From assembly GCA_973895155.1 (NCBI GenBank), contig OZ316895.1, forward strand, positions 19,792,803 through 19,856,802: 64,000 bases of DNA. Direction: 5' to 3'. Shown piece after piece: positions 11,150 to 39,932 of the stretch (its first letter is position 1; each line of letters starts with the position of its first letter). The position numbers were made by a program, and so were the translations under genes. Source of the stretch: Marsupella aquatica (lineage: Eukaryota; Plantae; Marchantiophyta). The notes below the pieces were generated by a model, which did no database searches, was not told where the DNA came from, and was given only the letters and a program-made list of their open reading frames with translations.

Positions 11150-11289
11150 CTGCCTATTGGTTAAGTAGACAGTTTAAGGTAATACCATAATAATGTGGAA
11201 CTTCACATTTTTATTGATCCTCACCATGGCACAATGTAAATTGCAAACTATCTACAACAAATGGGTTCTTGGATTCAACGTTTACTCAC

Positions 11290-11800: not shown

Positions 11801-11854
11801 CTGTCACATCATGCAATATAGATTAGCAACACTAATTAACTTATCCGACATCGG

Positions 11855-12675: not shown

Positions 12676-14435
12676 TGTCCGGGTGACCGTATTTTCTGGC
12701 AAGAGCATGTTGGCTCTTTTGAAGTTAACCTTGCATGCTCATAAGTTCTACACTAAAATCAAAATGATAATTCTAGTAACAAGGGTAGTGGGTATTAAGA
12801 AAGGTTCAGATCCATGACTTCAATAAAGGACAAAGATGATGCACTCCCACTCCTCTTGGTACGACACCACTGGGTATATTATTGGCTCGTTAGAAACCAT
12901 AACAGCAGTTGCAAACTGAGCTCCAAAATGATAGGTTAGATGTTGCCTCATAGATCGTTTATCTAAAAGATGGACTCTAATCAAAAACGGAATACGAAGG
13001 GGAAGATCAGGGATAACTCTCTCTCCTGGATTCATGATGGCTCTCCTATTCCTTTGCTATCCGGGCCAAAGGACGCCCCACCCCTATATTCCCAAAGAAA
13101 CCTTATTCCCTAAGGTCCCATCTATAAGTCTACCACTCATTCCTTTGCTATCCGGGCCAAAGGACGCCCCACTACTATGTTCAAGGCACAAAAGAGCTTC
13201 ACAACCTTGAATGATAAACACTGCAGAATGAGGGGAGAGTGCCCCTCACCACTTTATTTATAGTGCACACCAAGAGGGCATGGATCAAGCCCAAGCACTT
13301 GGATGAAGGCCAAGTGTCAAACATCTAATACCAAAGAGTGTGCTAGTACTGTTCATAGTTGGTGAAACTACTTTTAGTAGGTGAAACTACCATGCGTTGG
13401 TGGAACTACTATGCGTTGGTGGACCTACTGTGCGTTGGTAAAACTACTGTGCGTTAGTAAAACTACTATGCGCTGATGGATCTACTGTGCGTTGGTAGAA
13501 CTACTATGCGTTGGTGAATATTATTGTAGTTGGTGCTACTCATATGCATTGGTGGAACTACTATAGTCCGTTAATATAGCTAAAGAGTTTTAATAAAATC
13601 TAAATTTAATAATCTAACTACTAAATTACTTATATAATCTATAGCATATTAAAACAAACAATTTTTTATAACTTAAGAGAAAATCACGATATATCACCCC
13701 TACCAAACCTGTGCATCCTCCGGTATGCACCACACCTAGAATCGTTATATGTCTTCTTCATCTAAAGCCTCATAGTCGTCGGGTTCAAACTCTTCCTCTG
13801 TCACAAATCAAGTTCGTCGTTTAAACAATTTCACTCGCTTCCCTGCATAGGGATTGCGATGAATTGCTCCATCAAGTTCTCTTACCACATATGTTGCATT
13901 AGGACGAACCTCCTCCACCACAAATGGTCCTCTCCAACGACGTGCAAACTTCTTCAGAGTAGAATGTTGCTGTTCCAATCCTCCCTCATAGATCAAGACC
14001 CAATCTCCATTCTGGATGGGAATTGGTCTCAAACGATGGGTCTTGTCAAATCGTTCCTTATTCTTCTCACGAGCCTCCTTTAGCCTTAGTAACGCCTCCT
14101 CAATCTTCTCCTTGGTCTGGCTAAAGTGCTCAATCCTTCGCTCTAGCAACTTTTCTCGGGAGATTCTATCTTGCCATTCAATCATCCTCCAACTCTGAAC
14201 ATTTTTCTCAATCGGCATCAAAGGCAAATGTCCAAAGACTAATTCGGCAGGCGTAATTCCTGTTGTGGTAGTGCATGTCATTCAATCTGCCAAAAGAGCA
14301 AATGGTAGAAGATTGGGCCAAAGCGATGGTTTTCCTCGGTAAGATTTCACCAAGGCATTCACTATTGGTGGGTGCCCTCGCTCAATCTTTCCATTTCCTT
14401 CTGGGTTGTAGGCAGTAGTGAGTTTGAGCTTGATG
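12676..14435 (-). mobile_element. Truncated Ty3/gypsy fragment (3' LTR 12676-13696, PPT, integrase C-terminus) inside the copia 5' LTR
   Basis: TTAYNPEGNGKIERGH...GITPAELVFGH...RWRGPFVVEEV (integrase core end and GPY/F motif); purine tract GGTAGGGG on - immediately before TGATATAT at 13696. Confidence 0.85.
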
Positions 14436-14927
14436 TTGAACCGGTCAAAACGATTTCGACGACGAAGGGTGGTAAGGGGTTTTGAGGGTTCGAGGACATG
14501 TGTCAGCCCCTCGATTGTTCTTCCAAAATTCCCACAGGGCCTGTACAAGGGTCATAGAATATTCCAAAAAACCAGAGAGCTATTTTTTGACCGTCCGACA
14601 AAGATTGCATCCGCCGAACGGTAACTTTTTTGGTTATTTTTTGGCGAGGTCGTAGCCATTGAAGTTGGCAAGCGGCGCACCAATCACATTGCAATTCTGA
14701 CAACGGGTTGTACTTGGTATTTCGGTTATTCCCTGAGGTGGTCAAAACGGGGGAGTTTCCCAAGGTTTTACCCACCTCGACCGAAATTTGAATAACTTTT
14801 CCGTCAAATTTTGATTTTGATTTCGGTTTTCAGTATTGGACTCCTAGCTTTGTGGGCTACGCGGCGGTGTTGAGTTTTGAGTTTTTTGAGAAGTTGTGAA
14901 AAACAACATTTTTTGTGATTTTCTCAT

Positions 14928-17900
14928 ATGAATGATTCGGAGGAGTTTTTCGAAGACGTGGAACTTGAAGCACGAGGATCACCGCGGAGGTTTCAGGGGC
15001 AGAGAGAGGAGCAGGAGGAAGAGCACGTGACACCGATACCATCACCGGTGCGGCGTGTGGTGGAGGAAGCTGTACTACTACCGGAGCTCACGGTAGTGCC
15101 AAAGAAGAAGATGGGGACTTTCAAGCTTGGGGGACCCAAGTATGAAGTGACAAAGTATGATGGGCGCTCTGACTACTTGCTATGGGAGAAGCAGGTGAAG
15201 GGAGTGCTCTATGCGTCAGGGATGGGCCAATTGCTGAGCCCTCGTGAAGACGATGTTGATGAGAAACAATGGGACCGCATGCAGGAGCAGGGAGTGTGGT
15301 GTGTTACACTCTATCTCATGCCTCCCATCATCAAGCAGTTGGGTGCACATAAGGATTGCATGTCCTTGTTTACGGAATTGCAGAGCAAGTATCACCGCAA
15401 GGAGTTGTCGAACCGGCTCTACACTTCCTACAAACTGATGAGTTTCAGGATGAAGGAATCCGGTACGAAGTTGCAAGACCATGTGGATGCTTTCAACGAC
15501 ATGGTCGTTGACTTGGAAAACCTTGGGGAGACTTTGAATGATGAGACGAAGGCTCTGCAGCTTCTTAGTTCATTGCCTCCATCTTACCAGTCCCTATCAC
15601 GAGTGTTGTTGCATCGTGATAGGGATACCATTTCATAAAATGACGTGGTAAGTTCTCTGCTTAGTGATGATCTTCAGCAGAAGATGCACATCACGTCACA
15701 GCCTTCATCATCTGGTGCTGCCCTCAATGTTAACCGTGGAAGGAGTATGCAGTGACCAACTGGGGACCGTAGAACCCAGTTTAGATCTAAATCCAGATCT
15801 AAGTCCAAGGGTAAATCCCCTCAGAGGAGGCAGGTGACATGTTGGAAGTGCAACCAAGTTGGACACTTCAAGCGAGACTATAAGGGAAAGGCAGCGGAAA
15901 CTTCATCGGCAAATGTGGCTAGGGCTGATGGAGAAGCTGATTTACTCAATGATGAGTATGTTTTATGAAGTCGGGGGTATGCCCTGTGCACGTCATCTAG
16001 GAGAGTAGATGATGTATGGATTCTTGATTGTGCTTGCTCTTTTCATATTTGTTACATTCGTGAGTTTTTCAGTTCTTACTCTGTTTCAAACAGTTCAGTT
16101 CTGATGGGAAATGATCACTCCTGTCAAATTGAGGGAATTGGGTCTGTGAAGATTAAAATGTTTGATGGCGCTGTGCGCACAGTGTCCGAAGTCAGGTATG
16201 TACCTGGCATGCGTAAGAATCTGATTTCACTCGGTGTGTTGGATTCAAATGGTCATCAATGGAGCGTTATTGATGGTGAACTTCAAGTCAGGTCGGGAGA
16301 GACAGTGATTTTGAAGGGGAGTAGACAAAAGAATTTGTATGTGTTACAGGGCAATACTGTATGTGGAGAGGCCAATGTAACCAAGTCTCACGAGGAGATG
16401 ACTCAACTGTGGCATTCATGGCTAGGCCACATGAGTGAGAAGGGTTTGGCTATCTTACGGAAGAATGGACTCATTTCTGATTTGCAATCTTGTAAATTAG
16501 AGTTTTGTGAGCATTGCATTCTTGGAAAGCAGCATCGTCGTGCTTTTGGTGTTGGAACTCATCGTTCCAAAGCGGTTCTTGAGTACATACATAGTGACGT
16601 GTGGGGTCCATCCCCGACTCCCTCACACTCTGGAAAATTATACTATGTATCATTTATTGATGATTACTCAAGATTTGTGTGGATTTATTTCATGACGCAT
16701 AAGTCTGATGTCTTGTCCATTTTTAAGAAGTGGAAGGCCTAGGTGGAGAATCAGACTGGAAACACGATCAAGTGTTTGGATACAAGGGTGAAGAATCTGA
16801 GGTCAGACAACGGCGGGGAGTACACTTCAATGGAATTTGAAGAGTACTGTTCAGAACAGGGGATAACTCGCCATCTCACCATAGTTTATACTCCGTAGCA
16901 GAATGGTGTCGCTGAGAGACTCAATCGGACACTGTTGGAGCGGTCATGGAGTATGTTGAGCCAATCAGGTTTACCACAAGAATTTTGGGCAGAAGCTGTC
17001 AATACCGCAGCTTATTTGGTAAATCTTTCTCCTTCTAGTGCTATCAATTTCAAAACGTCGTTTGAGATGCGCTATAAGCGGCAAGCAGACTATCATGGCT
17101 TGGTAGTTTTTAGAAGTGATGCATATGCTCTCACACCGAAGCAGAATAGGATCAAGTTGGATCCTACCTCCAAGAAATGTGTTTTTCTTGGGTACCAGAG
17201 TGGTGTGAAAGCCTATAGGCTATGGGATCCTATTGCCTGTAAGCTCGTTGTCAGTAGGGATGTTTCCTTCAATGAATCCAGATTATTGAAGGAGGGGGAG
17301 AATACTCAGGTCTCCCGTACTGACAAAGGAAAATCTTCTATCCCGGATCTCGTTGAGGGGGAGATTGGTTATGAGGTGCATGACCGGAGAGAAGGAGTTG
17401 CTCCAATTATGGAGCTGGTTCCTGTGCCAGAGGAACCAGAGGAGTTTGTTGATGCTAGTGAGCAGCAAGTGGATGTTGTTGAGCTTCAAATTGTACCAGC
17501 ACACACAGATCAACCGGAGTCATCGGCTAGAAGAACATTTGGTCGCACTGTACACGCTCCACCAAGGTATGGACAGTGGGTTGATTCATCTCAACTGCAA
17601 GAGGATGATTTTACAGCTGATGATGAGGGTGATGCGTTAATTTTGGAAGAAGGGGAACCTTCTTCATTTCATGAAGCAAGTGCTTCAAAGGAGAAGCATA
17701 AGTGGACTGCAGCAATGCAAACGGAGATGCAGTCACTAAAGGACAACAAAACTTGGGAGCTTGTTAAGCTGCCTAAGGGTCAGCAAGTGGTGGACAGCAA
17801 GTGGATTTATAAGCTGAAGGATAATTCCATAGGAGGTGGATCGAAAGTCTACAAGGCTAGGTTGGTAGCAAAGGGATTCACACAAGAGAAAGGTGTGGAT

Positions 17901-19213
17901 TACAATGAGGTCTTCTCACCAGTTGCTAAGTACTCTACAATACGACTATTGTGTGTACTTGTTGTAATGTTTGGTCTGCTGCTAGATCAGATGGATGTTG
18001 TCACAACTTTCCTCTATGGCACATTGGAAGAGGTGATCTTCATGAGACAACCGCTAGGTTTTGTGAAGAGAGGACAGGAGGAATTGGTTTGCAGATTGCT
18101 GAAATCCTTGTATGGGTTGAAGCAGTCACCAAGACAGTGGAACAAGCGGTTTGACGATTGGATTCGGTCACAAGGTTTTCACATAAGTGTATTTGATCCT
18201 TGTGTGTATTTGAAACCGGTAAAGAATGTTGTCTTTGGGTTCATTGTTTTAGTACTTTATGTGAATGATATGCTAATTGCAGCCAAGGATAGGTGTGAGA
18301 TTGTTAAGCTCAAGGCACTGCTTAGTGCAGAGTTTAAGATGAAGGACTTAGGGCTAGCTAAGAGGATTTTGGGTATGGAGATCACTATGGACTTGGAGGC
18401 TGGCAAACTATGGTTAACGCAGAGCAGTTATGCGAGGAAGGTAATTGCAAGGTTCAACATGGGGAATAGCAAGCCAGTAAATACCCCGTTGGCTCCACAC
18501 TTCAAGTTATTATCAGCGTTCTGTCCTACGGATGACATAGAGAAGGGGTTGATGTCAAAGGTTCCGTATGACAAGGCAGTGGGGAGTCTCATGTATTTGA
18601 TGACTTGCACTAGACCTGATCTTGCCATGGCTATGGGCAAGGTGAGCAGGTACATGTCAAATCCAGGGAAGGTACACTGGGAAGCAGTGAAGTGGATTAG
18701 TACTTGAAGGGTACCGTGGATCATGGTCTTTTATTTGATGCGAATGCAAAGAATGCTAAATCATTGATTGGCTATGTTGATTCTGACTATGGACAAGATT
18801 TGGACCAAAGGAGATCAACAACAGGATACGTGTTCACACTTGGCGGTGGATGCATAAGTTGGAGGTCTACTTTGCAGAAGTGTATTGCTCAGTCTACTAC
18901 AAAAGCGGAGTATGTTGCAGCTGCAGAAGCAGCAAAGGAAGCAATTTGGTTGGATAGACTTATCACTGAAATGGGATTGCCACAGGGGAATGTGAAGCTC
19001 CATTGTGATAGTCAAAGTGCGCTCCACCTTGCTGTGAACCAGGTGATGGACAGCAGAGTGAAGTACATTGACGTCAGGTATCATTTTATCAGGCAGACTG
19101 TGTCTGATAATTTGTTTGAGCTAGTCAAGATTGATGGTAAACTCAACCCGGCTGACGCATTTACCAAAGTGATTCCTTTGGAGAGTTTCTTTAGACACCG
19201 TGACGTATTGTAG
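14928..19213 (+). pseudogene. Copia gag-pol (gag, zinc knuckle, protease, integrase, RT, RNase H) with several stops and frameshifts
   Basis: [74 protein letters not shown]. Confidence 0.95.
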
Positions 19214-20001
19214 GTTTTGCAGTTGCATCATAAGTAGAGTTTTCTTAACATTCATTATAATTACTGATATATGCTCTTCCTCATTCCTATGTATTAGGCT
19301 ACGGCTTAGTTCTGGTTTGCTCTAGTTAGAGAGGGAAACCGGTTTGGTTTTTGTCCAGAACTTCCCGCTGAGGGATCATATACATTGGCAGTATTACTCT
19401 CCCCTAGACCAGAGTCAAGGGGAAGATTGTTGGGTATTTACTCTTACGTCTAGGTTAGGTATGACGTGGTTGGTACAACAACGTGGGTTGGTACAACTAC
19501 GTGGTTAGGTACAACTACGTGATTAGGTACAACTATGTGGTTAGGTACAACTACGTGATTAGGTACAACTATGTGATTAGCTACAACTAAGTTGCACACT
19601 ATATCATAAGAGGCATGTGTGCTTGGAGAGGTAGAACCAAGGCTCATTGTTATGGAGCCACTTGAGAGATAGGGAGAGCTTACACTGTGGAGACTCGGTA
19701 TAGCCGACGGGCTTAGAGTTCAGTAAAGCTCTCTTGTGTGTTCCCGTGGACGTAGCCTCAAGGAGGTGAACCACGTATCTCTTGTGTCGACTATTGTGCG
19801 TTGGATGGTTCATGGGCTTGCCGTTGCGATCGTCGTCTATGCTCAACAGATCCTACCTATCTTGGAGAGCCTCTCCGAGATCAATCTTACCCATATGGGA
19901 GAGGGTGTCCGAGATCGTAATTGTGGACACATTTTTCAACTATCTCGGAGAGCCTCTCCGAGATGACTTCTATTGAAATGCCAAAATTAAAGTGAACTTA
20001 C

Positions 20002-23000
20002 AGCTTTTTTGCTTGATACCATGTAGCAAGGTGTGTCATTCCAAATGGTGAATGAGTCAATGTGATCCAACTTCTCAGCCCAGTCAATGTGAAGGTACTC
20101 AAAGATTGAGTCTGTGTGGGCAAATAAACCACTGTGCACGCACAAGAAACCGTCGTTTGTGAGTAGAGAGTCTGCCAATGTCGTCGCCACTTCTAGGTCA
20201 CTGAGCCAAAATCTATTCCACACCGGAACATTATTTTCAGCCTGCGCTATGCGATAATCTGTCCCTAGCTTAACAAAGATCATATCACAACCATGGCCCT
20301 TAGGTACACCATCAACTATCCAACCTTGTTTTTGCAAGCCAACCAACTTCAATTTCTTACACCAGTCCCGGAATTCCCTCATGAATGGAGGGAGAGGCAA
20401 CTTTCCCATGGTTGGCTGGTATTTGTCCATCAACCAAGAAGAACACTCTAGTAAGGTCATATGCTCTTTTGCATGGCAAAATCGCAGAGCAGATGTAATA
20501 GCATGAGAGGGCCGAGGTACTCCCAAAATTTTGCAAAGATCATCCTCCGGAATTTTTGGGGCTTCTATTGAAACTGGCTTCTTTGTGGGTTTGTCTATTC
20601 TCTTCTCGGCTTTCTTCTTTGGCCGACTGGTTGGCTTACCAGAGATCTGTGGTTTGCTTGGGGTCCCACTTGGGGTCCCGCTTGGGGTTGAAAGGTCAGG
20701 CTCCTCCTCCTCCTCATGGCCCTCTGCATTGTCCCCGGTGGCCATCTGATCCTCCTCTCCATTGTCCCACTCGCCGCTTTCTCATCCTCCTCTCCATTGT
20801 CCCTGGTCTTTCTCGGCTCCATCTTCTCATCCATTGGACAACGTTTGCTTGAGGTAGACCCTTGGGTTCCAATCTTTTCTTTACTTTTTTTTGTAGAACA
20901 AAGTAAGGAGTTTAGTATACATTTTACAATGATACTATCTCGGAGAGGCTCTCAAACATAGGTCAGATGTACAATGTAAGCTAGGGTGTAAACCTTACAT
21001 GGAGTGCCTTGTTCTGAGGTGGTGTCTTTTGATTCCTTTTCTTTCTTCCCCCGAACCTTCTTCCCATCATACCCTGGCTCTCCAAGAGGCAAAATGGCCT
21101 CCAAGTCCAATGCAGCCTTTGTCGACTGCTCAAGATCTGGCAACTTTGAAGGCGCAAAAAGGTTGTCTGGTAGTTTCCCTTCCTTTAGGAGGTTGGCAGC
21201 TTCCTTCTCTTTGGGCGTAATGAACTCAATCCAATCATTGAACTCCATGAATCATGGACAATTTTATCTCTCCCAGTCTAAAAAGACTCTTGCTGCTGGC
21301 TTCAGCCCGTCTGTTGGATACATTGACAGCGGGCCTTTCTCCGTCATCCATGCAGTTAGAGCACTTGGTAACACTTTGAAAGTAGAGGCTCCAATGCTCT
21401 CCTGATGAAGTAAATATCTGACCACACACCTCTTTGCACGCTTCCTCCACACATCTTTGCTTTGCTTTGCTGGATTCCACATCTTATTGCCCTCCTCATA
21501 GGACCGAGTCTGTACAAATTGCTTGTAAATCTTGTTGTGAAACTCAACAAACTCGTCTTTGCTTCCATTGAAGTTCTGCCACTCACCATAATCATATGCA
21601 CTCTCGGCAAACTCTGACATGATCAAACTGCCAACATGGGCAATGTAACACCACATTGACCACACTAGCAACCAAGCTCTCACTGCTAAATCACCATATA
21701 CATCTGGATGGTGGTATCACTTATTATCCTCCGCGGTTGAGAAATGAACGCGTAGTAACTTGTTTCGACACTCAGCAGGCATCACTGCACTTGCAAACAA
21801 TTTAACTCGATCCAACCCCACTTGCACTTGTGGCCGATCTTTTTGTTTACTCTGCAACTGGTGCAGCTCCTCGGCAATCTCCAAAAATTCCTCTCCATTT
21901 GCTGGATTGACAATCTGAGCAAACTTCTGCATTTTGCCCTCCCAAGACCTACAGGCTTCACTCGTCATGAGTGCGGTTTCCTTCTGGAACTTATCCGAAC
22001 TCCAGGCATGGCCAATTGCAGCATCGGTTGCCATCTCCTTCGCAAGACAAATCCTCCCGTCTTCAATATTATTCCACGACATGATGTACACAATAGCATC
22101 CTTTGTCATGCACTTGCTATAGCATGTCTTTCCATGCCCATGGCTTCTTGCTGCTAAGAATCTAGCATAACCATCCGGATGAAGCAATGTTTGATACTCC
22201 TCCAAAGGTGTCATCAACAACTTCTTCACCCTGTCTGCATCGGTCAACCAAGATGTCTGCACAATGTTTGCGCTTATCTTGCGTAAAAGAAGCGACAAAT
22301 GTTGGCGTCAAAGGCTATGTACAAGCAAATTACATCTCTGTCAGATGCTCTCCGAGAAGGCATGGATATCTCGGAGAGGCTCTCTGAGAAGGCATGGATC
22401 TTCAAGAAGGCATGGATATCTCAAAGAGGCTCTCCGAGAAGGCATGGATCTTCAAGAAGGCATGGATATCTCGGAGAGGCTCTCCGAGAAGGCATCGCTC
22501 TCCAAGAAGGCATTGATATCTTGGAGAGGCTCTCTGAGAAGGCATCGCTCTTCAAGAAGGCATGGATATCTCGGAGAGGCTCTCTGAGAAGGCATCGCTC
22601 TTCAAGAAGGCATGGATATCTTGGAGAGGCTCTCCGAGAAGGGAAGGTTCTTTCTATCTCAGAGAGCCTCTCCGAGATAGCATTTTGAGTGCCAAACATT
22701 GTATGTGTGTATGTATCTATCTTGGAGAGCCTCTCTGAGATAGGATTGCCTATGTGGGTGCAAAAGAACGACAAATGCAAGAACAACCAAAAACCAAGGG
22801 GGCGGTCACTTACGCATTGAGGCCGTGCATTTCCTGCTCAATCTTCCTGAATCCTTGTTTTCCAGGTTGTAGAAGAGAGAATCTCATGCAAGGGTGGTAC
22901 TTCTGCTCGTCAAGATACTCTTCAGCCACTTGTCTCCATGCATTCAGGCGATGATTTCCATCAAACACCCAAAACATCTTACCCTTCAAAACATGAAACT

Positions 23001-26345: not shown

Positions 26346-26477
26346 AAAGTCATAAGAATCAATAACAGTTTTCACATACTGTTTGTTGATTAAGTTACGC
26401 TCTTGAGAAACAAAGAGGAATTGAGCAAGCCGGAAAGGCAATAACATCCCTTACATGAACGAGGCATCTCTCGGTGG

Positions 26478-29173
26478 ATGCCACTTGAACTCTCTTGGTG
26501 CTCATTTTTAGTCTTTCTTCAAGTGGTTATCATGGCTGGCCATGTGAGGATCACGTTTCCAGACAATGGAGACGTTGTTGTGCTAGCGACTGATGGTGTT
26601 GTTCGGCATACACCAGACAACAAATTAGCTCCTCGGTTTGATGTTGAGATTGGGGAGTGGGCACTCTTTGAGGCCGGCAATGTCTTACCATTGATTGAGG
26701 CAAACTCAGAGGAGAGTGGAGAGGAAAGGATATGGCATCTAAAAAGTGAAGTTTTGTACGTCCTTCAGCAGAGGGTGTACTCTGTTCCTCTTACTAAAGT
26801 TGGTTTGCAATCTCAAACTGGAGAGAAGATTTCAGAGTGGCCGGCAGAGGTAGAGCAAGCCGAATTTCTTGAAAGTGTTATTGCTGCAATGCTCAAAGGG
26901 AAAGGCACTTTGCGATGTGTAAAGGCTGCCCATTCCATTCTCAGAGTGCATTATCCCCAACAAGTCATGACTCTGCCGGAATGGTATGATGGGGATTGCA
27001 TTTTTGAGCTCCCCGCATTCACAGGTATCCACACAAAGGGTGCCTTCTTCTTGGGTATAGAGCAAATAAATGACTGCTACTTGTGGAGCAAGCTCATCGA
27101 GATAGGGGCCCAAATTGGACCCAACGTGAACAAGGGAGGCTTCAAGTATAAGATTGGGAATGTGAGATGCCTGGGCTCTTTGCAATGTCCACATTCAGAT
27201 TGTCCGGCTTTTACAAGTAAGAAGAGCGCAATTGCACAGAATGGCAGCGAGATAGGGGTGGGAAAAATGAGGTTCCATTTCTTGTTGGGCGACTAGTTCT
27301 AGCAGAGAGTGTGATTTGCGACTTTTGTGATCGGCCTCCTAAGTGTATAGCCAAGTGTCCAGCCAAAATGTTCTACATCACTCCGACCTCTCATGACCAT
27401 TATATTTACAAGCACATGACACGTGTTGCTATGCATGTTGGGAGTCACTCACATCCGGCCAAATTTGTTCTCAAGAAAGATCGAAAAGCTTTCTTACATA
27501 AGTTGATGGAGGAGAAATTGAAGAAGAATCCTCATGCAATGCCGTCTGTGATCAAGAGTGATCTAAGGGATATTTTTGATGACAAGGTTGCTGGGATTGT
27601 CACATTTGAGGAAGTACGGGATCTGAATGAAACATTGGCAATCCTATCAAATCGATCAGTTGTAAGATCTATGATACAGAGCATACGCAAGTATACCCAT
27701 GCCTCATCCAACCTCCAAGTCATCCTTGATCTTCAAAAAGAAACAATGTTTTCATTTGTCAAGAGCACTCTATTTCTAAACCAGAAGCTAGATACAGATG
27801 AGCGCCCACATATTTTCAAGATGACTGTAAAGGGTCCAGGGTCTGGAATCAATCTCATTCGAAGGATGCAGCCTGGTGGAGATCTACAAGACTCATGGGT
27901 GATGTTTGATATCATGCATCGGATGACTGAGAGGCAATGGTACACAATGTCAGCTCATGTGTACGACCACCTATACAGAGGTCTCTGAACAATTTTTATA
28001 TGCGAGCTAGTTTCGGAAGATACTGCTGCACTACAAACTACATGGAAGGTCATGAAGCGAGTGTGTAAGGCAAATGGGCTTGACAATGTTACGTTTTATG
28101 GGTTCATTGTCGATAATACTGCAACTGGGTGGAATGCAGTTCAAAACACATTCTAGGATGGAAGAGTTAATTCTCAAAAGGAGCAATCTGATGCATTTCA
28201 CTAGGCGCAATCAGTGGAGAAGATGATAAAGAAATGCATTCTTCCTGGCAAAGCAGTTGAGCATAAGGAGCTTCTGGATTCATTGAGGGACGCTGCCAAT
28301 GTGGTTCTTGCATTTTGGACTTTTGAGAAGATGAAGGATTGGTGGAAAAATGGGAATGCAATCAAAGGAAAAACCAAGTCACTAGAGACATGGCTTTCGT
28401 GGTGGATTGTGCGGTTCTCCCAATGGGGAAACTTTATTCGGCTGGTAAGTCTATGAATTCTTAGTAATATTCCATCTCGGAGAGGCTCTCCGAGATGATT
28501 AATCTTGGACATGTTAGATAGCCTCTTCGAGATGGACAACGTGGGTCTTCTCGGAGAGGCTCTCCAAGATGGAACATATGGGTAATCTCCGAGATGGAAG
28601 ACGTGGGTACGTCATCTTGGAGAGGCTCTCCAAGATGGAACATATGGGTCATCTCGGAAAGGCTCTCCGAGATGGAAGAGGTGGGTCTTCTCGGAGAGGC
28701 TCTCCGAGATGGAACATATGGGTCATCTTGGAGAGGCTATCCGAGATGGAAGAGGTGGGTCATCTCGGAGAGGCTATCCGAGATGGAATATATGGGTAAT
28801 CTTGGAGAGGCTCTTCGAGATGGAAGAGGTGGGTCATCTCGGAGAGCCTCTCCCAGATGAAACAAATGGGCGACTCGGAAGACATGTTAGAGAGCCAACT
28901 TTTATTTTGTAAACACATGGTTCATCTTAGAGAGGCTCTCCGAGATGAAACACTGGTCATCTCGGAGAGCCTCTCCAGGATGGACCCCGTTGGACATGTT
29001 GCAGATGTACACAATGACCCATGTAGAGTTTTTGGTAATAATCTTTTCTTTGATTTCTATGTAGGACATGGACAGAACTAAGTCTGCATTGATGCTAAAC
29101 CATAGCGGGGCAGAATCCGTGCATGCCGCGATGCGCCGATGGTCTTCCACAACAAAGATTGGGATAGTGCAAT
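26478..29173 (+). pseudogene. Mutator-family transposase, 5' part (GCM/WRKY-like Zn domain and DDE core); intron 28445-29064
   Basis: CLGSLQCPHSDCP...CDFC...CPAKMFY...HVGSHSHP; D1 VMFDIMHR; D2 FIVDNT; CxxH position DAFH; E in NHSGAESVHA after the phase-0 GTAAGT...TGTAG intron; stops and frameshifts present. Confidence 0.85.
28474..28981. repeat. Palindrome array E filling the transposase intron, about 12 copies at 37-38 bp period
   Basis: Alternating spacers GGAACATATGGGTC and GGAAGAGGTGGGTC between palindromes. Confidence 0.9.
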
Positions 29174-29924
29174 CCCGGGGTCCTCACTTAATAACTTCCG
29201 ACCCATCACGCGCGAATAAGTATAGGGTTTTTTAATTCAATTTTCTAGAATACTTAAGAAGTTTTGTGGAAGAACTATAGGGGTTTAAAATTAAATCCCG
29301 CAACTTAGAAGTATAGTAGGGCAGCAAAAAAACCTTGCTCTTCAATATAAGTTGTTAGTATAAGATAGGGGTATTAGCCAACAAAATATATGGGGTATAC
29401 GTGTCAATCTTTTATTGGTCCACGTGGCAATTCCTTTCATAACTTGGTTTAGGGGCACCATGTGGGGGACCATGTGTACTCCATGGCCAATTTGGGTCAA
29501 AATTTAAATTATGGGTGTGAGCGGGAGGTCATCTATGAGGGGAGAAGAGCAAGGGTCAGGCGCGCAGGTCGAGAGCCATTTAGGACCATCGATCCAGGTT
29601 AGTGCCGTTTGTGTCAACATCATGCGGCCATACATTGGTAAGACAGTCCATTCTTTGTTACTTGCAGCGAGACTTGCGGCGGCCATGCAGGGCCTGATTT
29701 AGGGTAAAATTGAGCAGCGATGATCCAACCATCCATTTGTTGGGCCATCGGTTGGTTATGGTTTGCCCTGGCCATTTTGAGAAATTCGTGAACGTCTTGC
29801 AGCGTTTTGGGCAAAAATTGAGAGGGTGAGTCGCGAGGGTAGGGGCTAAACGCTGCCTTGATACTTTTCGAAAGGAAATGCATGCATGTTGCAGGGCGCT
29901 GCGATGCACTGATTGAGGAAGGTT

Positions 29925-30570
29925 GAAGATTGATCGAGGGCGAGATGACTGTGGATGGAGCTGCTGTGATCGAGGGGCACTAATTGCTGTGATCGGGGAG
30001 CTTTGCTGTTTGGGCTCAATGCTGCTTCGATACTTTTCCGAAGGATTTGCATGCATGCTGCAGGGCTTTATATTGAGCTGCAGCTTGATCGGGGGCGGGG
30101 CTGCGACTTTATATTGAGCTGCAGCTTGATCGGGGGCGGGGCTGCAACTTTACATTGAGGAGCTGTGATCGGGGGCAGGCTGCAACTTTCAATTGAGCTG
30201 CTATGATCGGGGCTGCAGCTTTTGATTGAGCTGTTGTACGTGATCGGGGGACAAGATTGAGCAAGGCTGAGATTGATCGGGGGGACAATTGTTGATTGAG
30301 CTGCTGCTGTGACCGGGGGAACTTTTTGTTGAGCTGGAGCTGGGTCGGGGGCGGGGCTGAAAATTTCAATTGACTGAGGAGCTGTGATCGAGGGTGGGGC
30401 TGCAACTTTCGATTGCGCTGCTATGATTGGGGTGCTGCAGCTTTTGATGGAGCTACTGTGATTGGTAAACCTAGATTGGGAATGATGGAGCTATTGTGAC
30501 CGGCAAACCTATGATCGATCGAACCTGTGATTGAGCTGCTATCATCGGCAAACGTGTGGTCGAGTTGCTA
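29925..30570. repeat. Degenerate tandem repeats (GATCGGGG / ATTGAGCTG) in the 5' region of the P-like element
   Basis: Recurring TGATCGGGGGCGGGGCTGCAACTTT..ATTGAGCTG units. Confidence 0.75.
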
Positions 30571-30774
30571 TCAGCGGGCAAACCTACTTTTGGTGGAGTT
30601 TTCTATCCATTGCTCTTAGTGCTTTCGAATTGCCTATGCTGTGTGTCCTACTTTTTGTATAAATTGCACTCGTGATGTTAAGGGCAATGCTCATTTGTCT
30701 GTATGCTTTTCAGTTTACTTGTTGCCACCTTACGCTCCGCAAAGAAACTTCTCGTGCCATGCATCTCATCACTA

Positions 30775-30955
30775 GTCTGCTCTATTGCTCGCTACTCTGC
30801 TCTATTTCTTGCTCTACTCTATTGCTCGTTGCTCTGCTCTATTGCTCGCTGCTATGCTCTATTGCTTGTTGCTTTGTTGCTCTATTGCTCGTTGCTCTAT
30901 TGCTCACTGCTTTGTACCTCGTTGCTCTGTCGCTGCTCTGTACCTCGCTGCTCTT
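30775..30955. repeat. Short GCTCTATTGCTC-type minisatellite
   Basis: Many CTCTATTGCTCG/TTG repeats. Confidence 0.75.
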
Positions 30956-32263
30956 TTGACAGTCCATGCCAATGTTTGTTGTGCAATACCTTGCTTACCC
31001 ATAGCTTCATTTGTTAGCCAGCTTTCTCCTCATCAAGCCAGCTCCTTTGTCCTTGATCATGTGAGCTAGTGTCGAGAGCTCTTAAAGAATCCATGTCTGT
31101 ATCTCCCCCCTCTTTTGCAAGCAGATTTATGAGAGCTTGTCCTGCTTGTAAGGATCCATTGAATGATGGCTTAGCACTCCAGATGTTGAAGTGAGAAGGA
31201 ACTAGGGAAGGAACTTACCAAAAGTGAACACATTTAAGTGAGAGAAATGCCTGAACTGCAGTCGCTGCACATGTTGATCATACTAAAAGCTCATGTTCGG
31301 GTGGCAGTCCAACTCATTCCAAGTTGGCAATAGAGCTTGGACAGGAACTCTGAATTCCATGGATTGCTGAAAATCAATTTAGAAATAGAGGCTTTGACTT
31401 GGCGCAAGGGAGCTAATTCGATCTGCAAGTGCCGTTTCATTCGATCTGCAAGTGCTTGTGGTGGAGTTTCCTCACTGTCCTGCTAGTTTTGAATTGCTTC
31501 CTTTGATTCATTCTGAGTGATTTGATTTTCTTGCTCAATAGAATGTCCTGTCAATCATCTCCCTCTCTTTGTTGCTCTTGAGTTCCCTTTGCTTTGTCTA
31601 GGAGACTTAGATAAACTATTAGCTCTTGGTGAATGCAATATGTGGCTGTTCCTCCAAGGCAATGGAAGGCATTCGTTTATACAAGGTGGGCATTGGTTCG
31701 AGTTGTGACTGAGGTGATTGTGGCTGTGATCAAGGTGCAGCAAGAGTTTTGATCCAAGTAGGGGAATAGCAGATTCGCCCTTGGTACAACAGAATCCCTA
31801 GAGGCACTGTTGTTTCTCCTCTGCCAGCTTGTGTGACATTCATTTGGCTTTGTGTTGTGTAGGTTTTCCAACCAAAGGTTCTCTTCAACATCTATAACTT
31901 GGAACCAGTATTATGCAGTTTGGTATGCCCTGACCCTGGCTCTAGCTGAACTCGAATTGAAATTTAAAGTTGAATTTTAGTCAGCCTTTTCATATGCTCT
32001 TGACTTGTCTTGCAGGATGGATTGGCTTAGGATGTAGTGGAATCATCTGAGAAGCTTCAGCAATATACCAGGGTTCACATGTAAAGATTGTGGAAGGAGC
32101 AGGATTCAAATATCACCATTTGCTGCAGCTACAATCAAACAAGAGATTGATTAAAGGTATGATTCTATCTAGGATGCTTGTAGTTGCAAGTTACATAATA
32201 TCAATCTACTGTTCAATATATGTTGAATGGATGTTGAGGGGTTGCAGAACAAATGTTGAGTGA

Positions 32264-32962
32264 ATGGATGGGCCTGTGTGCAGAGGTAAAACCACTATCC
32301 AAGAAGCAGAGATGGCTTCTGATGTGCCCAGGATTGACATATTTTCCCATAAGGAGCACCACCGCATGGACCCCCCTTGCTGTTTCTTTTGTGATGAGAC
32401 AGACGATGTGGTTTTCTGTGATGGGCCTTGTAGTAGACATTTTCACTTTGTCGGTGGAAAAGGTATGCATGGGCCTAATTGCACTCCTATCACATTGCCT
32501 AAAAACAATGACTGGAGGGCACCTTGGGTTTGTACACTCTGTGCTGCTGGTAGAGCTAGATGCTTTGCTTGTGGCCTCATTGGCAGATTTGAACATCCCA
32601 CAGCAGAAGAATCTCTTGTGCTCCATTGTGCCCACCCTGACTGTTTTTCTCATTACCACCCTGGTTGCCTTAGGGTGCTACTTATGATTGGGGCACTGCC
32701 TGAGAGGTTTCATACAACAAAACCAAACAGCCTAATGTGCCCAAGGCATTTCTGTGAGTACTGTAAAGTCTACAAGGATGGTATTAAAGACTTTGTACAG
32801 TGTCGCAGGTGCCCTCGAAGTTGGTGTCATGATGAGAAACTTGGGGGAGTGAAACACCTCAGGAGGTGTGTGAAGGGCAGGGACCACTGGGATGTGGAAG
32901 GGTGGCGTTTCATTTATTGTCATAGGCATGCAATACCTGATGGGGAATTGGTTCCTACATAG
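32264..32962 (+). CDS. Tandem PHD/C1-like zinc-finger cluster of EDM2/NSD type
   Basis: CFFCD...VFCDGPCSRHFH...CTLC....RCFACG...CAHPDCFSHYHPGCL...CPRHFCEYC...VQCRRCPRSW...FIYCHRHAI matches the Cys/His layout I recall for EDM2-family PHDs; uninterrupted 232-aa ORF. Confidence 0.75.
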   Translation: MDGPVCRGKTTIQEAEMASDVPRIDIFSHKEHHRMDPPCCFFCDETDDVVFCDGPCSRHFHFVGGKGMHGPNCTPITLPKNNDWRAPWVCTLCAAGRARCFACGLIGRFEHPTAEESLVLHCAHPDCFSHYHPGCLRVLLMIGALPERFHTTKPNSLMCPRHFCEYCKVYKDGIKDFVQCRRCPRSWCHDEKLGGVKHLRRCVKGRDHWDVEGWRFIYCHRHAIPDGELVPT

Positions 32963-33188
32963 CCACATACCTCTTAGAGTTTCTGAAATTGGTAGAAATG
33001 CTTTGGTAGAGGGTTGGTACAAAGCAAACTTATTCACTAGACTAATTACATGTGAACTATGATCAACAAGATTTTGTTTGTGTTGGACTTCAACTTTTTT
33101 GATCAAAAGATTTTTGTAACTATTGTGGAGTAATGTCTAATATGCTTCATATCGTTTTGTTTATTGTGCTGTATGGCAGGTTCATTGT

Positions 33189-36100
33189 GTGACTGATTGT
33201 TTTCAGAACCCTTCATACTTTAACTTTAACAAATTGATTGAAATGGCTACCCAGTTTGTAAAACTATTGCACAAGAAAAGAGATGTGGTGACTGATGGGA
33301 AAGATGAAGAACCTATAGCTGTGTTGGCCTTCAAAGAGGGACAAACTTTAGCTGATTTTCGAAGTCGAATTCCTGATTTGGTTGATTTTGATTTTGATTT
33401 CTGGGATTATAGGCTTCCTGGTCGCATGAAAGTCAAGAGTGAGAAAATGACTGAGTTGTTTGAATTGGATGGGAAAGTTGCTGTCATTGAACAAATAGGA
33501 TCCTTGCCGACTGGTAGAACACAGTTTCCATCAGTATCTCCTACTGTCACCCAATCGGCTACAGTGGACTCTTCACAGGGTGAACAGCTTCATGAAGCTC
33601 CCCCTATGAGAGCTTCTTTTGAGTCTCTTCTCATGTCTCAGTCGGCTGTCAAAGTCTGGAATGATAAATATATAAGACTAGAGAAGTGGATTCACAAGAA
33701 TGGTTATAAAGCTATAATTGGAGAATTCAAACTTGGGATGAAGGACAGGATGTGAGAGGCCATCTGGAGTGTCTTGAGTGCAGAGTGATCTATGGGAGGG
33801 CAGACAATTCACAAGATAAGAAGTCAATTGCTAATTTGTTCAGCAATTTTAAGACCAAGCACCTTGCCTTTGCTAAACACAAATTAAAGATAATTACTGC
33901 AGGAGAAGGGGCATTGCTATGACTGGGGTCAAGCCCTCAGATCTTGCACAGAAGCCTGAGTTTGATTATGAGGGGGCCATAGCAACTGGCCTAGAGATAG
34001 TCCAGACTCTGAATGTTGAGTGTGGAGGTGATGATGAGCTATTTCATGTGCCCCCTGTGCCTGGTGTAGCCAATAATGCAAACAAGTGGTTCCTTTATAA
34101 GGTTCGTTGTAAAATCTGTGGGGCAATCATGGATTTGGTTTGTAAGAAAGGGACTTTGGACCACAACCTGAGGACACACTTGGTCAGTCGGGGTCATCTG
34201 GATGTAGTTGAAGCCAGAGAGAATACTACTGAACTTGCATTGAGATCTGGAAAAAGGGGCAGACCAAGGAAGCCAGATGAGAGGGATCAACATCCTTCAC
34301 AGAATTCAATTTTAAAATTCTTCAAGGAGGATGCTTCCAATGCAAGCAGTAGCTCTGGCACAGGTGGGTCTATAGACATTGATGTGGGCTTAAGTTTGCT
34401 TTGTTGGGGAATATGGGATGAATTTGTAGAGTGGAAGAATGTGAAATATGCTGTGAAAGGTATCTTGCATGATCAATGTGGTGGACATGTATGGGATTTA
34501 GATGTTGCAGCCTCTGTTCATGTCTACAATCCCGTCACCAATTCTATTGTACATATAGAAGGACTATTTAGGCATAAACATTGCTGTAGGTTGTCCTTGT
34601 ATGGTGGAGGGTTTCTGAACCTTACTTGCAGTAGATGTCATGCTATAACACTAGAAGATGACTTTCGTGGGCGGGTGCACAGGGAAGCGGAGGCTTTAGC
34701 AAAGAGAGGGGGAAGAAGCACAGAGGGTGGTTTGAATGCACGTTATTTGACACGTCCAGAGTTGACCACACAGATGCATGGTCTGAATGTCAAGAGAAGA
34801 AAGGAGAGATGGTTGTTGGCACAACAGACTCAGAAAGTGTGTGCCCTTAGTCCTTTGAAGAGAAAATTGCAGGAACTGTTAGGAGTAGCTGCAGACAGAA
34901 AAGATTTGAGACTTTTTCTAAAAAATATTGTCAATGGTCATAGGAATGGTGCATTTGGTGGAAAAGAAGGTCTTTGGGATTTTTTGAAGGATGTAAGTAG
35001 AAATTTGGAGAGAAGTGCAAGGGGGTTTCGTTACAGTCAAAAAACAAAAGCCATAGCTCAGGCTATGTTTCAGTATGGGGGCCGGCAGGTGGCCCATGTT
35101 TTTGCAAGAAATTTAGTTGGGCCAAGCCTGAAGACATTGAAAAGAGATAGAGCAAAATTTGTGCAATTTCGTGTTGGAATTAGACCAAAAACATTCAAGG
35201 AGGTGGCTCGGATTTTGTCTGTTGCAAAGGAGATGCTAGGAATTCAAGGCGATGTACCTGTCATGCTTGCAGAGAATGAAACTAGGATAAAGGAAAGCCC
35301 AAGGTATGTTTGTATATCATAGCATTTGAAGCTTATTTGTGATACATGTAGACTTTTTACTAATTCTTTATATTTGACTTACTTTTCATTGGGCTCTATG
35401 CAGGTGGGAGGCCAAGTATGACACTCTGATTGGTTTCTGTGGCCATAAGGATGAGCATACCTGTGAATTTGGACTGGAGATTCTTGTAGGTGACGGTGAG
35501 GATGGCTATAATAAGATTGTAAATACATTTGAGGATTATAACAAGGGCATGTATGCTAGAGTTGTCATTGTCAATCCATTGCATGTTGGAATGCCAAAGT
35601 TGGCCCTCTGTGCTATATCTACCTGTAACAAGTTCAAGGCAGAATGGGTTTGAGAGCATTGGGTGCAATTAAAAGAATCTTGGGATGTGCACTGCAGAGA
35701 CTTTGTAGGTCCTTTGCTTGGGCATGCTAGTGATGGTGATGCAAGACGTAGGAAATTGATGCTAGAAGACTATAGAGGAGCAAATGGCTCTTACCCTAGA
35801 TTCTGTGTAGGGTGGGAAGGATGGCCATATTTAGTTGCCATATTGCCTAATGGGGACCTATACGGTTTTGGTGATCAAGACCAACCTCACAATGGGAAAA
35901 AGTTGATTAACCCACTAGATCGAGTGTCCTCAATAATGGCACTTGGAAACCAACATGCTTCTTTGTTTCATGTTTGTAATGTGTACAATCGCTATGCAAT
36001 TCATCAACATGGATTAAATTGGGATGATGTGAACAGATCTGATCGTCAAAATTGGGTTGGTCCCCAAAGAATAGCATCCGAAAAGGTGCGTGATTGCTTA

Positions 36101-37807
36101 GCAGATCTGCATGTAAGAACTAATCTGTCGTATGAGCGAAGTTTGGGGACAGAGTTGTATCTGCAGGTCTGTGCAGATTATATTGACATTTTCTACTCCC
36201 AAAGATATAACCTGAGAACCAGAGTGAAGCTGGCAGGCAAAGTATCTTGGTTCTTTCGATTGTGGAGGTTGTGGTTGAGGTACGGTGATCATGCTGTTGG
36301 TGGAAATGTTGCTTCACATACAGAGAAAAATATGATTTCAATCCAAGCTTTTCATGATGTTAATATGTCTTGTCAATTTGTTGTGTTGCTTGTGTGTGCA
36401 TTTCGTGATAAGTTTTCTCACTTGTGTATTCCATTTCATGAATTGGGTTCTGATTGTTGTGAAATCTTTTTCAGCAAGGTAGGTGGAATGAGTGGCCATG
36501 AGAGAAATTATGATTTTGGCTCTTTGTTGGATAGTGCTGTTGGGTTGAATCGTCTTGCTGGATTAGAATGTGGACCAGAGGGCTTAAAAGTAGCTCGCTC
36601 ACATAAGAAGCAAGATCATGTGTGGGCCAAGCTTCATCCTTTACTTGAAGGTGAAGATGCACCTAATCTTTTTGATTACTCTGGAGTGCAAACTAATGAG
36701 TTGGTGGTTGCAGCATTGAAAGAAGGATTCGAAGAAGCAAAACAGTTGCTAAGAAGGTTACAAATGTCTCCCCGGAGTGATCTTCTAGCAGCAAGAAAGT
36801 GATGGTGGACTCACCCTTGGGATGTGGAAGTTGAAACATGGCCAGATTCAGCTGTAATAGAAGAGGTAGTTGTTGCTGATGATTCTGAAGAGCATGTAGA
36901 GCACAGATCTCCAATTGGACCTCGTCCAGAAGAAGAGTTTCATGAATTTGAAGATCCTGAGGAAGATCTAAATCGAATTGATGCATGATTGACAGATGAG
37001 TTAACCATTCCTGATGATGTTTTGCAGGATGGGGCTGAGTTAGACATACCAGAACCTCATTCTGTAGAGGTAGATACTTTGGGGCATGAGGTTCGTCATG
37101 TTCTATCTTCTGTTGTGGTTGAGCTTACAGAGTCTATTCAGAGCCCTATGCAGGAAAAGAAGAAGGTTTTGCCTACAATTACCTATGAGGGCAGAACAAT
37201 TTACAAATCAACTTTGGTGAGTCAACTAGTGGGCAATCCTCATTTGTCTAAAGATAGGCTAACAAGGGTGAAGCAAGTGGCATACTATAATCTTGGTAAG
37301 AGAAAAAAATGTGATCCAAATACTGTGACTTGTTTTGTTGATGTTGGGAGTGATTGTGGAGTAGCTTTTGAAAGTGCTAATGATGCAGGCCCTTCTACAA
37401 GATCAAAGAAGGGGAAAGGTAAGGGAAGAGGTAAATCTAGGATTCAAGAGCCACTAGTGCAAGCAAAGAAAGAATTTTGGCTTGGTCGGATTATGATGAT
37501 GAGACAGAAAGTTAAGGGACAATGGACTAGAGTGAGATCTGCTATTGATTTGCTTGACAGACCAACACCTCCTCATGGACACGAAGGGAGTATTTGTCAG
37601 TTCTTGTTCAATTGGTATAAGCCAACAAGCTCAAGCAAAGTTGAATTCACTTATGATACAACTGATTTACAATGGATTGATATAGAAATGGTGATGACTA
37701 ATGTTACTCTAACCATGAAACAAGGGATTGGTTTAGTGTATGTGTTAGATCGAGTTGATAAACAAGCTTTGGATACTTATTTGGAGACCATGTCTAGAGT
37801 TGAATGA
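33189..37807 (+). pseudogene. P-element-like DDE transposase with two N-terminal C2H2-type fingers; intron 35304-35403
   Basis: CLEC...KHLAFAKH and CKIC...THLVSRGH; GFRYS...GPSLKTLKR; D1 site MLAENETRIK..R|WEAKYDTLIGF (D reads N); SDGDARRR; DQPHNGKKLINPL (DxxH); DRQNW; GSDCCEIFFS (E). Scattered point stops and frameshifts. Confidence 0.75.
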
Positions 37808-38413
37808 TTTGCATGCATCAATAGTCATGGTAGCGGTTTTAGTATGTACATGGGATAGGTTAGGGGAATAGGCTAGGGGGTGGCAGATTTGGATACTTGA
37901 GCTTCTTGCTCAATCAGGGGTTCAATTCCCCTCTGCCACGTACACTCACCATTCAGATTCTAGACTCAATTCCCTTTTGGTGTACCTATCTTTCACATGA
38001 GACAAGCATAGCAGATTGCAAATATGAATAACTCATACTGTATATTGCTGAAGCTTCTACTAGAATTGGTTTTCTTAGTGGAAGCATCAACACTATATAC
38101 TATCAATTTTCCATGAGATATGGATGCCAAACCCGATGCCAAAGGAGCACGTTAGGTTTCAAATAAGCTTGGCAAAAACCCGAATAAGGTGCGCACTTGA
38201 ATGAACTTTTCTTTTCTTACTAAGGGGTATTTAATTCACAACAAAACTTTACTTAACTATTTTTAGGGGTCAAAATGTTAGGATTTCCAATTCTTATAAG
38301 TATGATAGGGAAGGGGAAAAAATATTTTTACTTAATAAGTTAGGGGTGCAAGGGTCCAAAACGTCGAGCGTGATATGAGGGTCTTTGTATATTGAGGCCC
38401 CCGAGAGTGCAAT

Positions 38414-39932
38414 CTTGTATAACTGATGCAACCCGTGCATCAAATCAAATTGGTGCCCTTGTGAACTACACGACCCACAAGGGGAAGGGCCGTGGCCCAA
38501 GCCTCTTTGAACTTCATCTCCGAGATGCCAGGATGGTTGGGAATGTTAAAAATTTCTTCCCAAAGTTAAATACAGTGATGACTCAATCGAAGATGGTTGA
38601 ATATGCTTTGGGGGACCAATTCCTGGTGACTATGACACTCAACGAATGCCGACGCGAGGCAAGGTTCCAGTTGATGCTATTGCAGTAGAAGACTCTCATG
38701 GCGATGATGTCATTCTAGTAACTCGACCTAAGAAGCGGAAGTTCAAGGGGATTTCAAGCCAAGATGCAAACTTGAAAAGTACCATTCCTGACATGGTCGA
38801 CTTGTCAACCTTGTCAGACTCTCCTACAAGCTCTGGTGGATCAGATGTGGTGATTTTGGAGAGCCTAGTACAACGTGCGACAAGGTCAACACGTGTCCCT
38901 CCACCATCAACCCCAAGGAGGTCAACTCGAGTGCCTCCTCCGCCCCCAACAAGGGCAACACATGTTCCACCTCCTCCAACCCCAACAAGGTCAATACCAA
39001 GGTCACCCCTTGTTGTCCACCAACGCGGTTGGCTGAACCTTTGCATAATAGAGGCGAATAGAGACAAGTTCAGGATAGCAATGTGATGCCAGGAATGTTG
39101 TTTTTATCTTGCATCAGTCGCCATGGAAGTGGTCCCGCTTGTAGAGGTATCTTCAAAGGCACAGAACGTCCAGCATGCGATCTATACATCAAGGAGGTGG
39201 GGTTTCGTCATGCAACGTTGGGTGTGGTAGTTATGCTTATTGGCTGGGAGCAATTACAAGGATCCAAACATTCCACAAAAGTTTTGGTTTTGCCCAAACA
39301 ATGAGTGTTGCCAAAAATCCTTCATGGCATATGTTATTGAGCGGATGCCCCCACTACCAAAGAAGGTCCCAGTTGCTTGAGGAACCTATCTAACATAAGA
39401 GGAAGTTGATTTTCTCCATGTCAATGGATTGAATGTGGTACAGACCATCATTCCTGGTGATTAAATGGTGAGTCATGGCGATGTAATTGTGGACTTGAAT
39501 AGTTACCCTGAGCAGATGGATCCACTGAAGCCTGATGTTAGGCTAAGCCGGCGCAATGGCCGGCGAAGGAGATTGGTTGTGACGGCAGATGCAAAGAAAC
39601 ATATTGAGAGTGCCAAATCAGAGTTGATGAGGTTCACTTCCATGACTCAAATTGAAAAATGGAATGCAACTGGCTTACGAGTGGTACTTTCCAACACTCA
39701 TTGTGACCGCAATTCAGCCCATTGTGTACAGATATGTGTGTTCCCAACTTGCTCTTGTCAAGATTTCATCATGAGAGATACTAGAAGATACTTCTTTCCT
39801 TGCAAACACTTGTATTGGTGCTATAAAAACATTTGTGGACGAGATCTAGAGAGTGACCAAGAGATCCACTAGCCAATCTTGACACTTAGCGAGGTTCGTA
39901 AATTGGTGTCAAATGTAGCAGGCTCAGGGTGA
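38414..39932 (+). pseudogene. Mutator-family transposase, 3' part ending in a SWIM zinc finger
   Basis: SCITDATRA...GKGRGPSL; Pro-rich linker; PTCSCQDF....FPCKHLYW (CxC..CxH SWIM). Confidence 0.85.

Follow-up and report, generated by a model that had tools for sequence, protein, structure and literature searches.

In the 64,000-nucleotide stretch of Marsupella aquatica (Marchantiophyta) DNA analysed here (the window; GenBank assembly GCA_973895155.1, contig OZ316895.1, forward-strand positions 19,792,803 to 19,856,802), a DNA transposon with a P-type transposase also encodes an EDM2/NSD-type cluster of PHD fingers, and this second ORF is very probably a selected accessory gene of a P-superfamily transposon. 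The PHD ORF is multi-copy, it is linked to the transposase and its variants are biased towards synonymous changes, which together argue for a maintained accessory gene rather than a recent neutral capture.

The PHD ORF lies inside a decayed P-type transposon

The initial annotation, made from the letters of the window, had placed the PHD ORF inside a P-like transposon, and the structure of the locus bears this out: the ORF is enclosed by an element bounded by an 8-bp target-site duplication (TSD) and 13-bp terminal inverted repeats (TIRs), with a transposase predicted to have a P-type fold (Table 1). For the P superfamily, a TSD of 7-8 bp is expected.

Table 1 Features of the window discussed in the text, in window coordinates
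Feature	Position	Strand	Basis or remark
P-superfamily DNA transposon, decayed copy of a multi-copy family	29174..38405	+	9,232 bp; TSD and TIR
Left 8-bp TSD, AGTGCAAT	29166..29173	.	identical to 38406-38413
Right 8-bp TSD	38406..38413	.	identical to left copy
Left TIR, 13 bp	29174..29186	+	11/13 matching right repeat
Right TIR	38393..38405	-	pairs with left, 11/13
Tandem repeat arrays, 5' non-coding part of the P-type element	30066..30958	.	TRF, periods 8-57
PHD-cluster ORF as first called	32264..32962	+	uninterrupted, 232 codons, Cys/His-rich
Probable coding part of the PHD ORF	32312-32962	+	216 aa, from second ATG
PHD finger 1	32381..32542	+	residues 40-93; 8/8 host-conserved Cys/His kept; predicted H3-tail binder
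PHD finger 2	32552..32749	+	residues 97-162; PF22908 PHD_NSD, E 4.6e-8
Third, remodelled finger of the PHD ORF	32753..32929	+	ligand comparison, 3 short proteins
P-type transposase gene	33243..37807	+	own start Met, one intron 35304-35404; tblastn map and N-terminal alignment
C-terminal beta-barrel of the transposase	37330..37775 (approximate)	+	weakly BAH/chromo-barrel-like; P0010 residues 700-853
MULE-like host element	26445-28460, 29080-29173, 38414-39872		decayed transposase
Weak SWIM match of the MULE-like host element	39465-39872		E 0.019
Ulp1/C48 SUMO-protease ORF	10233-10826	-	E 4.8e-16
ORF, by eye a degenerate methyltransferase fold	11282-11803	-	no significant Pfam or PDB sequence match
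ORF, by eye a degenerate methyltransferase fold	19987-20781	-	no significant Pfam or PDB sequence match
LTR-retrotransposon remnants (Copia-like, Gypsy-like by eye)	14919-19213	+	
LTR-retrotransposon remnants (same)	13808-14281	-	
LTR-retrotransposon remnants (same)	57734-61763	-	

The P-type element is inserted inside a MULE-like transposon. When the element and one copy of the TSD were removed in silico, a continuous MULE-like frame was restored. Copies were analysed in short contigs of four public runs (kind of run unrecorded; X5-X12, a small share, were left out), and in all four the contigs contained the joint 29155 to 38408, representing a related MULE copy without the P-type element. 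Contigs that share the left end of the element but differ in their flanks numbered 21, 29, 54 and 38 per run, and the loose-end consensus reproduced this left end in 4/4 runs; the right end was absent among the loose ends listed.

The observed/expected CpG ratio is 0.16 in the PHD ORF and 0.23 in the transposase, as against 0.46-0.52 nearby, and the depletion of the PHD ORF fits long residence in a methylated element. As a separate observation, the window contains 50 arrayed occurrences of the palindromic core GAGAG(G/C)CTCTC, none of them inside the P-type element.

The transposase has a predicted P-type fold and is dead in this copy

In the window copy the transposase gene has two frameshifts (33713, 33881) and three in-frame stops (35651, 36800, 36986). 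At 35275, the first catalytic Asp of the DDE triad, it encodes Asn where the family has Asp, and other family copies differ from it at the frameshifts and at this residue. The transposase of this copy is dead, and the copy fails as an autonomous active element.

We assign the transposase to the P superfamily from the modelled RNase H fold and insertion domain of its homologue P0010. This model (pLDDT 78) matched the Drosophila P transposase 6p5a with a Foldseek E of 1.6e-8 and with a Z of 24.8 (rmsd 3.6, 374 aligned residues), the next best Z being 11.2. The Atlas neighbours of the transposase, at 0.94, are THAP9/P clusters with TNP-like RNaseH and GTP-binding-insertion families. Pfam, its P-transposase models included, gave no match in the window transposase and identified none of 31 long homologues as a transposase, no THAP domain was matched by Pfam in the window ORFs or those homologues, and PDB sequence searches with the transposase profile, as with the single PHD sequence, returned no match. 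A THAP domain is typical of animal P elements and not universal; since none was matched here and the predicted fold is P-type, the element is filed under the P superfamily by fold rather than as a canonical P element. The named homologues of the transposase come from Riccia and Calypogeia.

The C-terminal barrel of the P0010 model is suggestive of a BAH-like domain. Of the top 50 structural rows, 17 align there (14 BAH-bearing and three chromo-barrel chains), with Z scores of 5.5-6.7 that lie below the tool's trust level, and Pfam BAH had no match in the C-terminus of the transposase across the 31 long homologues. The barrel is conserved, and members of the family in which no PHD is known have it too. 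Another chromatin-type module, a PTM/DIR17-like Tudor domain (E 9.7e-10), is found at the end of P0035, a distant homologue of the transposase, and further distant loci of the transposase family (L016-L067; 25-46% identity) were found in other metagenomes.

The PHD ORF is EDM2/NSD-type with a remodelled third finger

Judged by its sequence, the PHD ORF is an EDM2/NSD-type cluster of 2.5 fingers. It matched PF22908 (PHD_NSD) with 33.7 bits against a curated cut-off of 23.9 (E 4.6e-8), and its homologues P0001 and P0002 likewise exceeded this cut-off. Additional Pfam matches to PF23011 and PF00628 were weak, as were first-PHD matches at residues 40-93, and PF23004 was not matched in the Pfam scan. 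The ESM Atlas neighbours of the ORF are PHD_NSD clusters (0.91-0.92); by BLAST the PHD region of a Riccia EDM2-like protein is 29% identical over 213 columns (E 9e-21); and a 43-row PHD alignment matched PHD1-3 of NSD2/NSD3 (E 6e-22 to about 1e-21) as well as PHD1 of AIRE (E 2e-5). The EDM2/NSD identity proposed at first therefore holds, and the HMMER and BLASTP comparison suggested alongside it, which could have exposed an ORF devoid of PHD similarity, found that similarity instead. An EDM2 orthologue was considered and rejected: the RFD and methyltransferase-like domains are absent from the PHD ORF, whereas the host matches are proteins of 1320-1628 aa with PF26055.

The closest relatives of the ORF are short proteins. 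When proteins of comparable length were searched, four of 68 candidates were hits. Two of these, P0001 and P0002, are stand-alone and full-length (226 and 247 aa), are 54-57% identical to the PHD ORF and end no more than three residues from its own end. Because both align from Met17, the start of the gene is probably at 32312. A profile of the short PHD proteins retrieved 234 representatives at E<=1e-3, ten of them named and 24 Pfam-scanned. The top named matches are liverwort proteins (Riccia, Marchantia, Calypogeia) with a C-terminal PHD cluster, which share a DPP-x-C start with the PHD ORF, together with EDM2-like proteins. Host proteins are 25-32% identical to the ORF and none among the 234 matches is closer than about 30%, the nearest relatives in this set being the short stand-alone proteins. 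Metagenome and viral contigs yielded no locus with the PHD profile.

Twelve host rows share 25 conserved Cys/His columns, of which all three short proteins retain 22, and the three altered columns all fall in finger 3 and the tail. In fingers 1 and 2 every host-conserved Cys/His from C40 to C183 is retained in 3/3 proteins, while in finger 3 His188 has become Cys in all three, Cys191 is lost, C219/H222 are kept, and the terminal RDH motif with its terminal His is gone. Finger 1 keeps the C-D-G motif of EDM2 and the acidic residue preceding Cys40, although the window copy has T-D where its relatives have G-G, and by the matches of the 43-row alignment it resembles the PHDs of AIRE, CHD4, PHF21A and TRIM33. 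Across the three proteins 95 of 198 positions are identical, including non-ligand residues unlike those of EDM2.

The three short proteins form one clade (100/99) on a long branch of 2.8 changes per column. As to the donor among EDM2-family genes, AU tests on 25 rows rejected neither grouping (p 0.33 and 0.14), and neither these trees nor a quick search on 54 of 146 rows fixed it. An AlphaFold model of the PHD ORF from a five-row alignment had a pLDDT of 32 and was set aside. A second clade of short stand-alone NSD-type PHD proteins (98/96; 187-245 aa; P0143, P0171, P0173, P0177 and P0179) is possibly an independent TE capture.

The PHD gene is multi-copy and shows a synonymous bias

The check across family copies proposed in the initial annotation found PHD in multiple copies in all four runs, not in this copy only. 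Per run, 142 to 325 contig pieces covered the 701-bp PHD stretch; most were 90-99% alike, and the only indels listed were a compensating pair, none breaking the frame. The median depth of PHD was 0.56-0.88 of that of the transposase and far above that of the 5' region, a rough guide in which depth is not copy number. One contig (X4 contig 27), about 88% identical and from a divergent subfamily, bridges the end of PHD and the start of the transposase.

The accompanying dN/dS check supported purifying selection and pointed away from a neutrally evolving host fragment. Among the 40 best-supported of 91 PHD variants, a mix of private decay and subfamily divergence, 19 are synonymous and 21 non-synonymous against an expected synonymous fraction of 0.21-0.26, giving an omega of 0.29-0.40 (p 1e-4 to 3e-3), and no zinc ligand is changed. 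The excess is frame-specific: 19/40 synonymous in the PHD frame compared with 12/40 and 9/40 in the other two. The evidence that amino-acid changes avoid conserved PHD sites is modest (7 of 18 changes fall on such sites, about 11 expected, p 0.044). In the transposase, the 27 coding variants listed comprise 15 synonymous and 12 non-synonymous changes.

What had first drawn attention, an uninterrupted ORF next to a broken transposase, is a real contrast (232 codons against five lesions) that is uninformative on selection. At the lesion density of the transposase (five in 4.46 kb), 651 bp would be expected to hold 0.73 lesions, and the PHD ORF would be intact by chance with P ~0.48.

Loose ends at 32385 read like P0002, which points to a second, distant subfamily in the same runs. 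In distant loci of the family PHD was found in 0/67, of which just two (L001, L003) extend for more than 800 bp 5' of a recognisable transposase start. The transposase family thus seems to transpose without PHD, and the PHD cargo looks limited to a sub-lineage.

A possible role as chromatin adaptor

We tentatively favour a reading that is somewhat likelier to be wrong than right, namely that the EDM2-derived PHD cluster, predicted to bind H3 tails, serves the transposase of the element as a chromatin adaptor. An ancestor of the sub-lineage would have taken up the PHD-encoding part of an EDM2-family gene, and finger 1 would bind the H3 tail of silent chromatin, unmethylated at K4 and possibly methylated at K9. 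The PHDs of AIRE, CHD4, PHF21A and TRIM33 read K4-unmethylated H3, and PHD fingers usually use acidic residues for H3 binding. The predicted protein has neither an effector nor a sequence-specific DNA-binding domain and would need the transposase for element specificity; since a reader-only protein cannot recognise its own element, its simplest use would be as an adaptor for the transposase, which does. The PHD protein and the transposase would together facilitate excision where the donor site is silenced, steer insertion towards heterochromatin, or both, a pair working much as the PHD of RAG2 regulates RAG1. The long branch and the remodelled finger 3 mean that histone specificity may have changed or been lost, and a single nested insertion, in a window rich in TEs, is little evidence of targeting.

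The main rival, rather unlikely in our estimate, is that the PHD protein helps transcripts through silencing: it would bind H3K9me2 on silenced copies and so yield full-length transposase mRNA, either by recruiting host factors of the ASI1/AIPP1 type or by otherwise relieving silencing. EDM2 PHDs bind H3K9me2 and other marks (PMC7472560), and that and two further papers describe EDM2 acting with ASI1 and AIPP1 (PMC7472560, PMC7529245, PMC9292364), the three proteins favouring distal polyadenylation across intronic heterochromatin (PMC7529245, PMC7472560). TE-encoded anti-silencers exist, VANC being one (PMC5735166). Tandem repeats, of which VANC targets often consist, are present in the 5' part of the element, the PHD gene lies 5' of the transposase in the same direction, and the evidence of selection on it is also compatible with such a role. 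However, the ORF is a PHD cluster only, and because neither the RFD nor the methyltransferase-like part of EDM2 is present, the polyadenylation role is not simply transferable to it. Nor is there an evident domain for sequence-specific DNA binding or for RNA binding that would direct it to its own element, and the strong CpG depletion implies that the element has been methylated for long periods.

Less probable still is that the fingers have lost histone reading and now bind the transposase, the DNA ends or a host protein. The long branch, the altered finger 3, the lost C-terminal motif and the identities shared by the three short proteins at non-ligand residues would all suit such a cofactor, but finger 1 is the part that has stayed most EDM2-like, acidic residues included. 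Doubtful, too, is a more elaborate form of the adaptor proposal, in which bryophyte P-type transposons would sense chromatin with a pair of genes, in parallel to but independently of RAG1-RAG2: the EDM2-type PHD and the BAH-like domain of the transposase would mimic the host pair ASI1(BAH)-EDM2(PHD) and license or aim transposition in heterochromatin.

We consider it improbable that the protein is a decoy, a reader-only mimic that would compete with host EDM2-family proteins for silent chromatin and weaken TE control genome-wide. Its reader-only architecture suits this, and EDM2 affects H3K9me2 and/or transcripts at more than 2,000 Arabidopsis TE loci (PMC7529245), but a global effect would be costly, other TEs would gain equally, and 25-32% identity to host proteins makes mimicry of a partner surface doubtful. 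A neutral passenger, that is, a Pack-type captured host fragment whose synonymous bias is an artefact of the variants listed, is very improbable and largely refuted: although an intact ORF in the window copy is expected by chance, the bias comes from the best 40 of 91 variants and 0/67 distant loci have PHD, the lack of any close host gene among the 234 matches, the short stand-alone nature of the near relatives, the frame, ends and 22/25 ligands kept at about 55% identity, and a synonymous excess confined to the PHD frame all stand against it.

The PHD gene appears to be separate from the transposase

The initial annotation had also suggested that the PHD ORF may be spliced to the transposase, which now appears most unlikely. 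An acceptor-like site ends at 33179 and the codons after it are in frame with the transposase Met, so that PHD might serve as an upstream exon; donor-like sites are present within the PHD ORF, and Rehavkus transposases carry a fused PHD (PMC6446971). Yet the PHD stop has the same position in P0001 and P0002, four full-length homologues have their first Met at the position of the transposase Met at 33243, and a PHD domain is missing from all 31 long transposase homologues. Moreover, the listed internal donors would truncate the PHD fingers, the 15 of 48 joints listed include no PHD-transposase link or GT..AG ends, and a search of longer proteins with the PHD profile, itself a weak test, returned just two host EDM2 proteins. 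The site at 33179 may instead serve a 5' UTR intron. An AG-GTAAA motif at 32280-32292, just 5' of the ATG at 32312, is kept in divergent copies, as read from the loose ends; it might act as either acceptor or donor, and as a donor spliced to 33179 it would skip the PHD ORF.

Comparison with known systems

The PHD ORF has the same 2.5-finger cluster as EDM2/EDM2-like proteins and PHD1-3 of NSD1-3. It differs from them as a transposon-encoded, stand-alone protein of about 216 aa that is about 30% identical, has an altered finger 3, and carries no RFD, methyltransferase-like domain or SET. With the Drosophila P element and THAP9 the plant element shares the predicted transposase core and an 8-bp TSD, but its transposase, of about 1,500 aa, has a different N-terminal domain, no THAP match and the putative BAH-like tail. 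P element ends start with CA; the imperfect TIRs of the plant element do not, and it carries a second gene.

RAG2 is a protein of Kelch repeats and a single PHD that binds H3K4me3. The Transib-derived RAG1-RAG2 pair is likewise a DDE transposase with a separate PHD gene, whose PHD finger can regulate the transposase (PMC12337333, PMC4411706). In contrast to RAG2, the PHD ORF is an EDM2-type triple finger without Kelch, in a different superfamily, and its interaction with the transposase is a prediction. Accessory ORFs of TEs (VANC of VANDAL MULEs, TnpA, Harbinger Myb) are described as probably co-opted from host chromatin regulators and under weaker constraint than the core enzyme (PMC13547354, PMC5735166). 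The PHD ORF resembles these as a separate, less constrained accessory ORF of probable chromatin-regulator origin, whereas VANC is sequence-specific and its fold is unrelated. The MULE-related transposon Rehavkus also encodes a PHD finger, but its one ORF encodes a transposase that contains the PHD, and it occurs in arthropods and annelids and makes a 9-bp TSD (PMC6446971).

In titles and abstract openings, a partial coverage of the literature, we found neither an EDM2-type PHD gene in a DNA transposon nor P-type elements in land plants, though Repbase may already contain the family. The term PHD is absent from the text of an Arabidopsis TE-product atlas, and in term counts of a 2026 preprint neither PHD nor P element occurs. 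The seven plant TIR superfamilies named in a 2023 review do not include P (PMC10741241). Our results point to a land-plant P-superfamily lineage for which Pfam has no model and which that review does not list. Few proteins, chiefly VANC, have shown how DNA transposons of plants evade silencing or select their insertion sites, and EDM2 is the host protein that allows transcription to proceed across silenced TEs. A transposon that keeps the reader part of EDM2 offers a small, testable protein in a lineage with a tractable model (Marchantia). Were the PHD protein a generic cofactor only, it would still be a new type of accessory gene, of modest reach.

Other elements of the window

The initial annotation had counted the P-type element as a second independent DNA TE with chromatin-related cargo. 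This was not established, as only the Ulp1 protease ORF was found elsewhere in the window; that ORF is probably the cargo of another DNA transposon. With the further remnants given in Table 1, the window is a TE nest.
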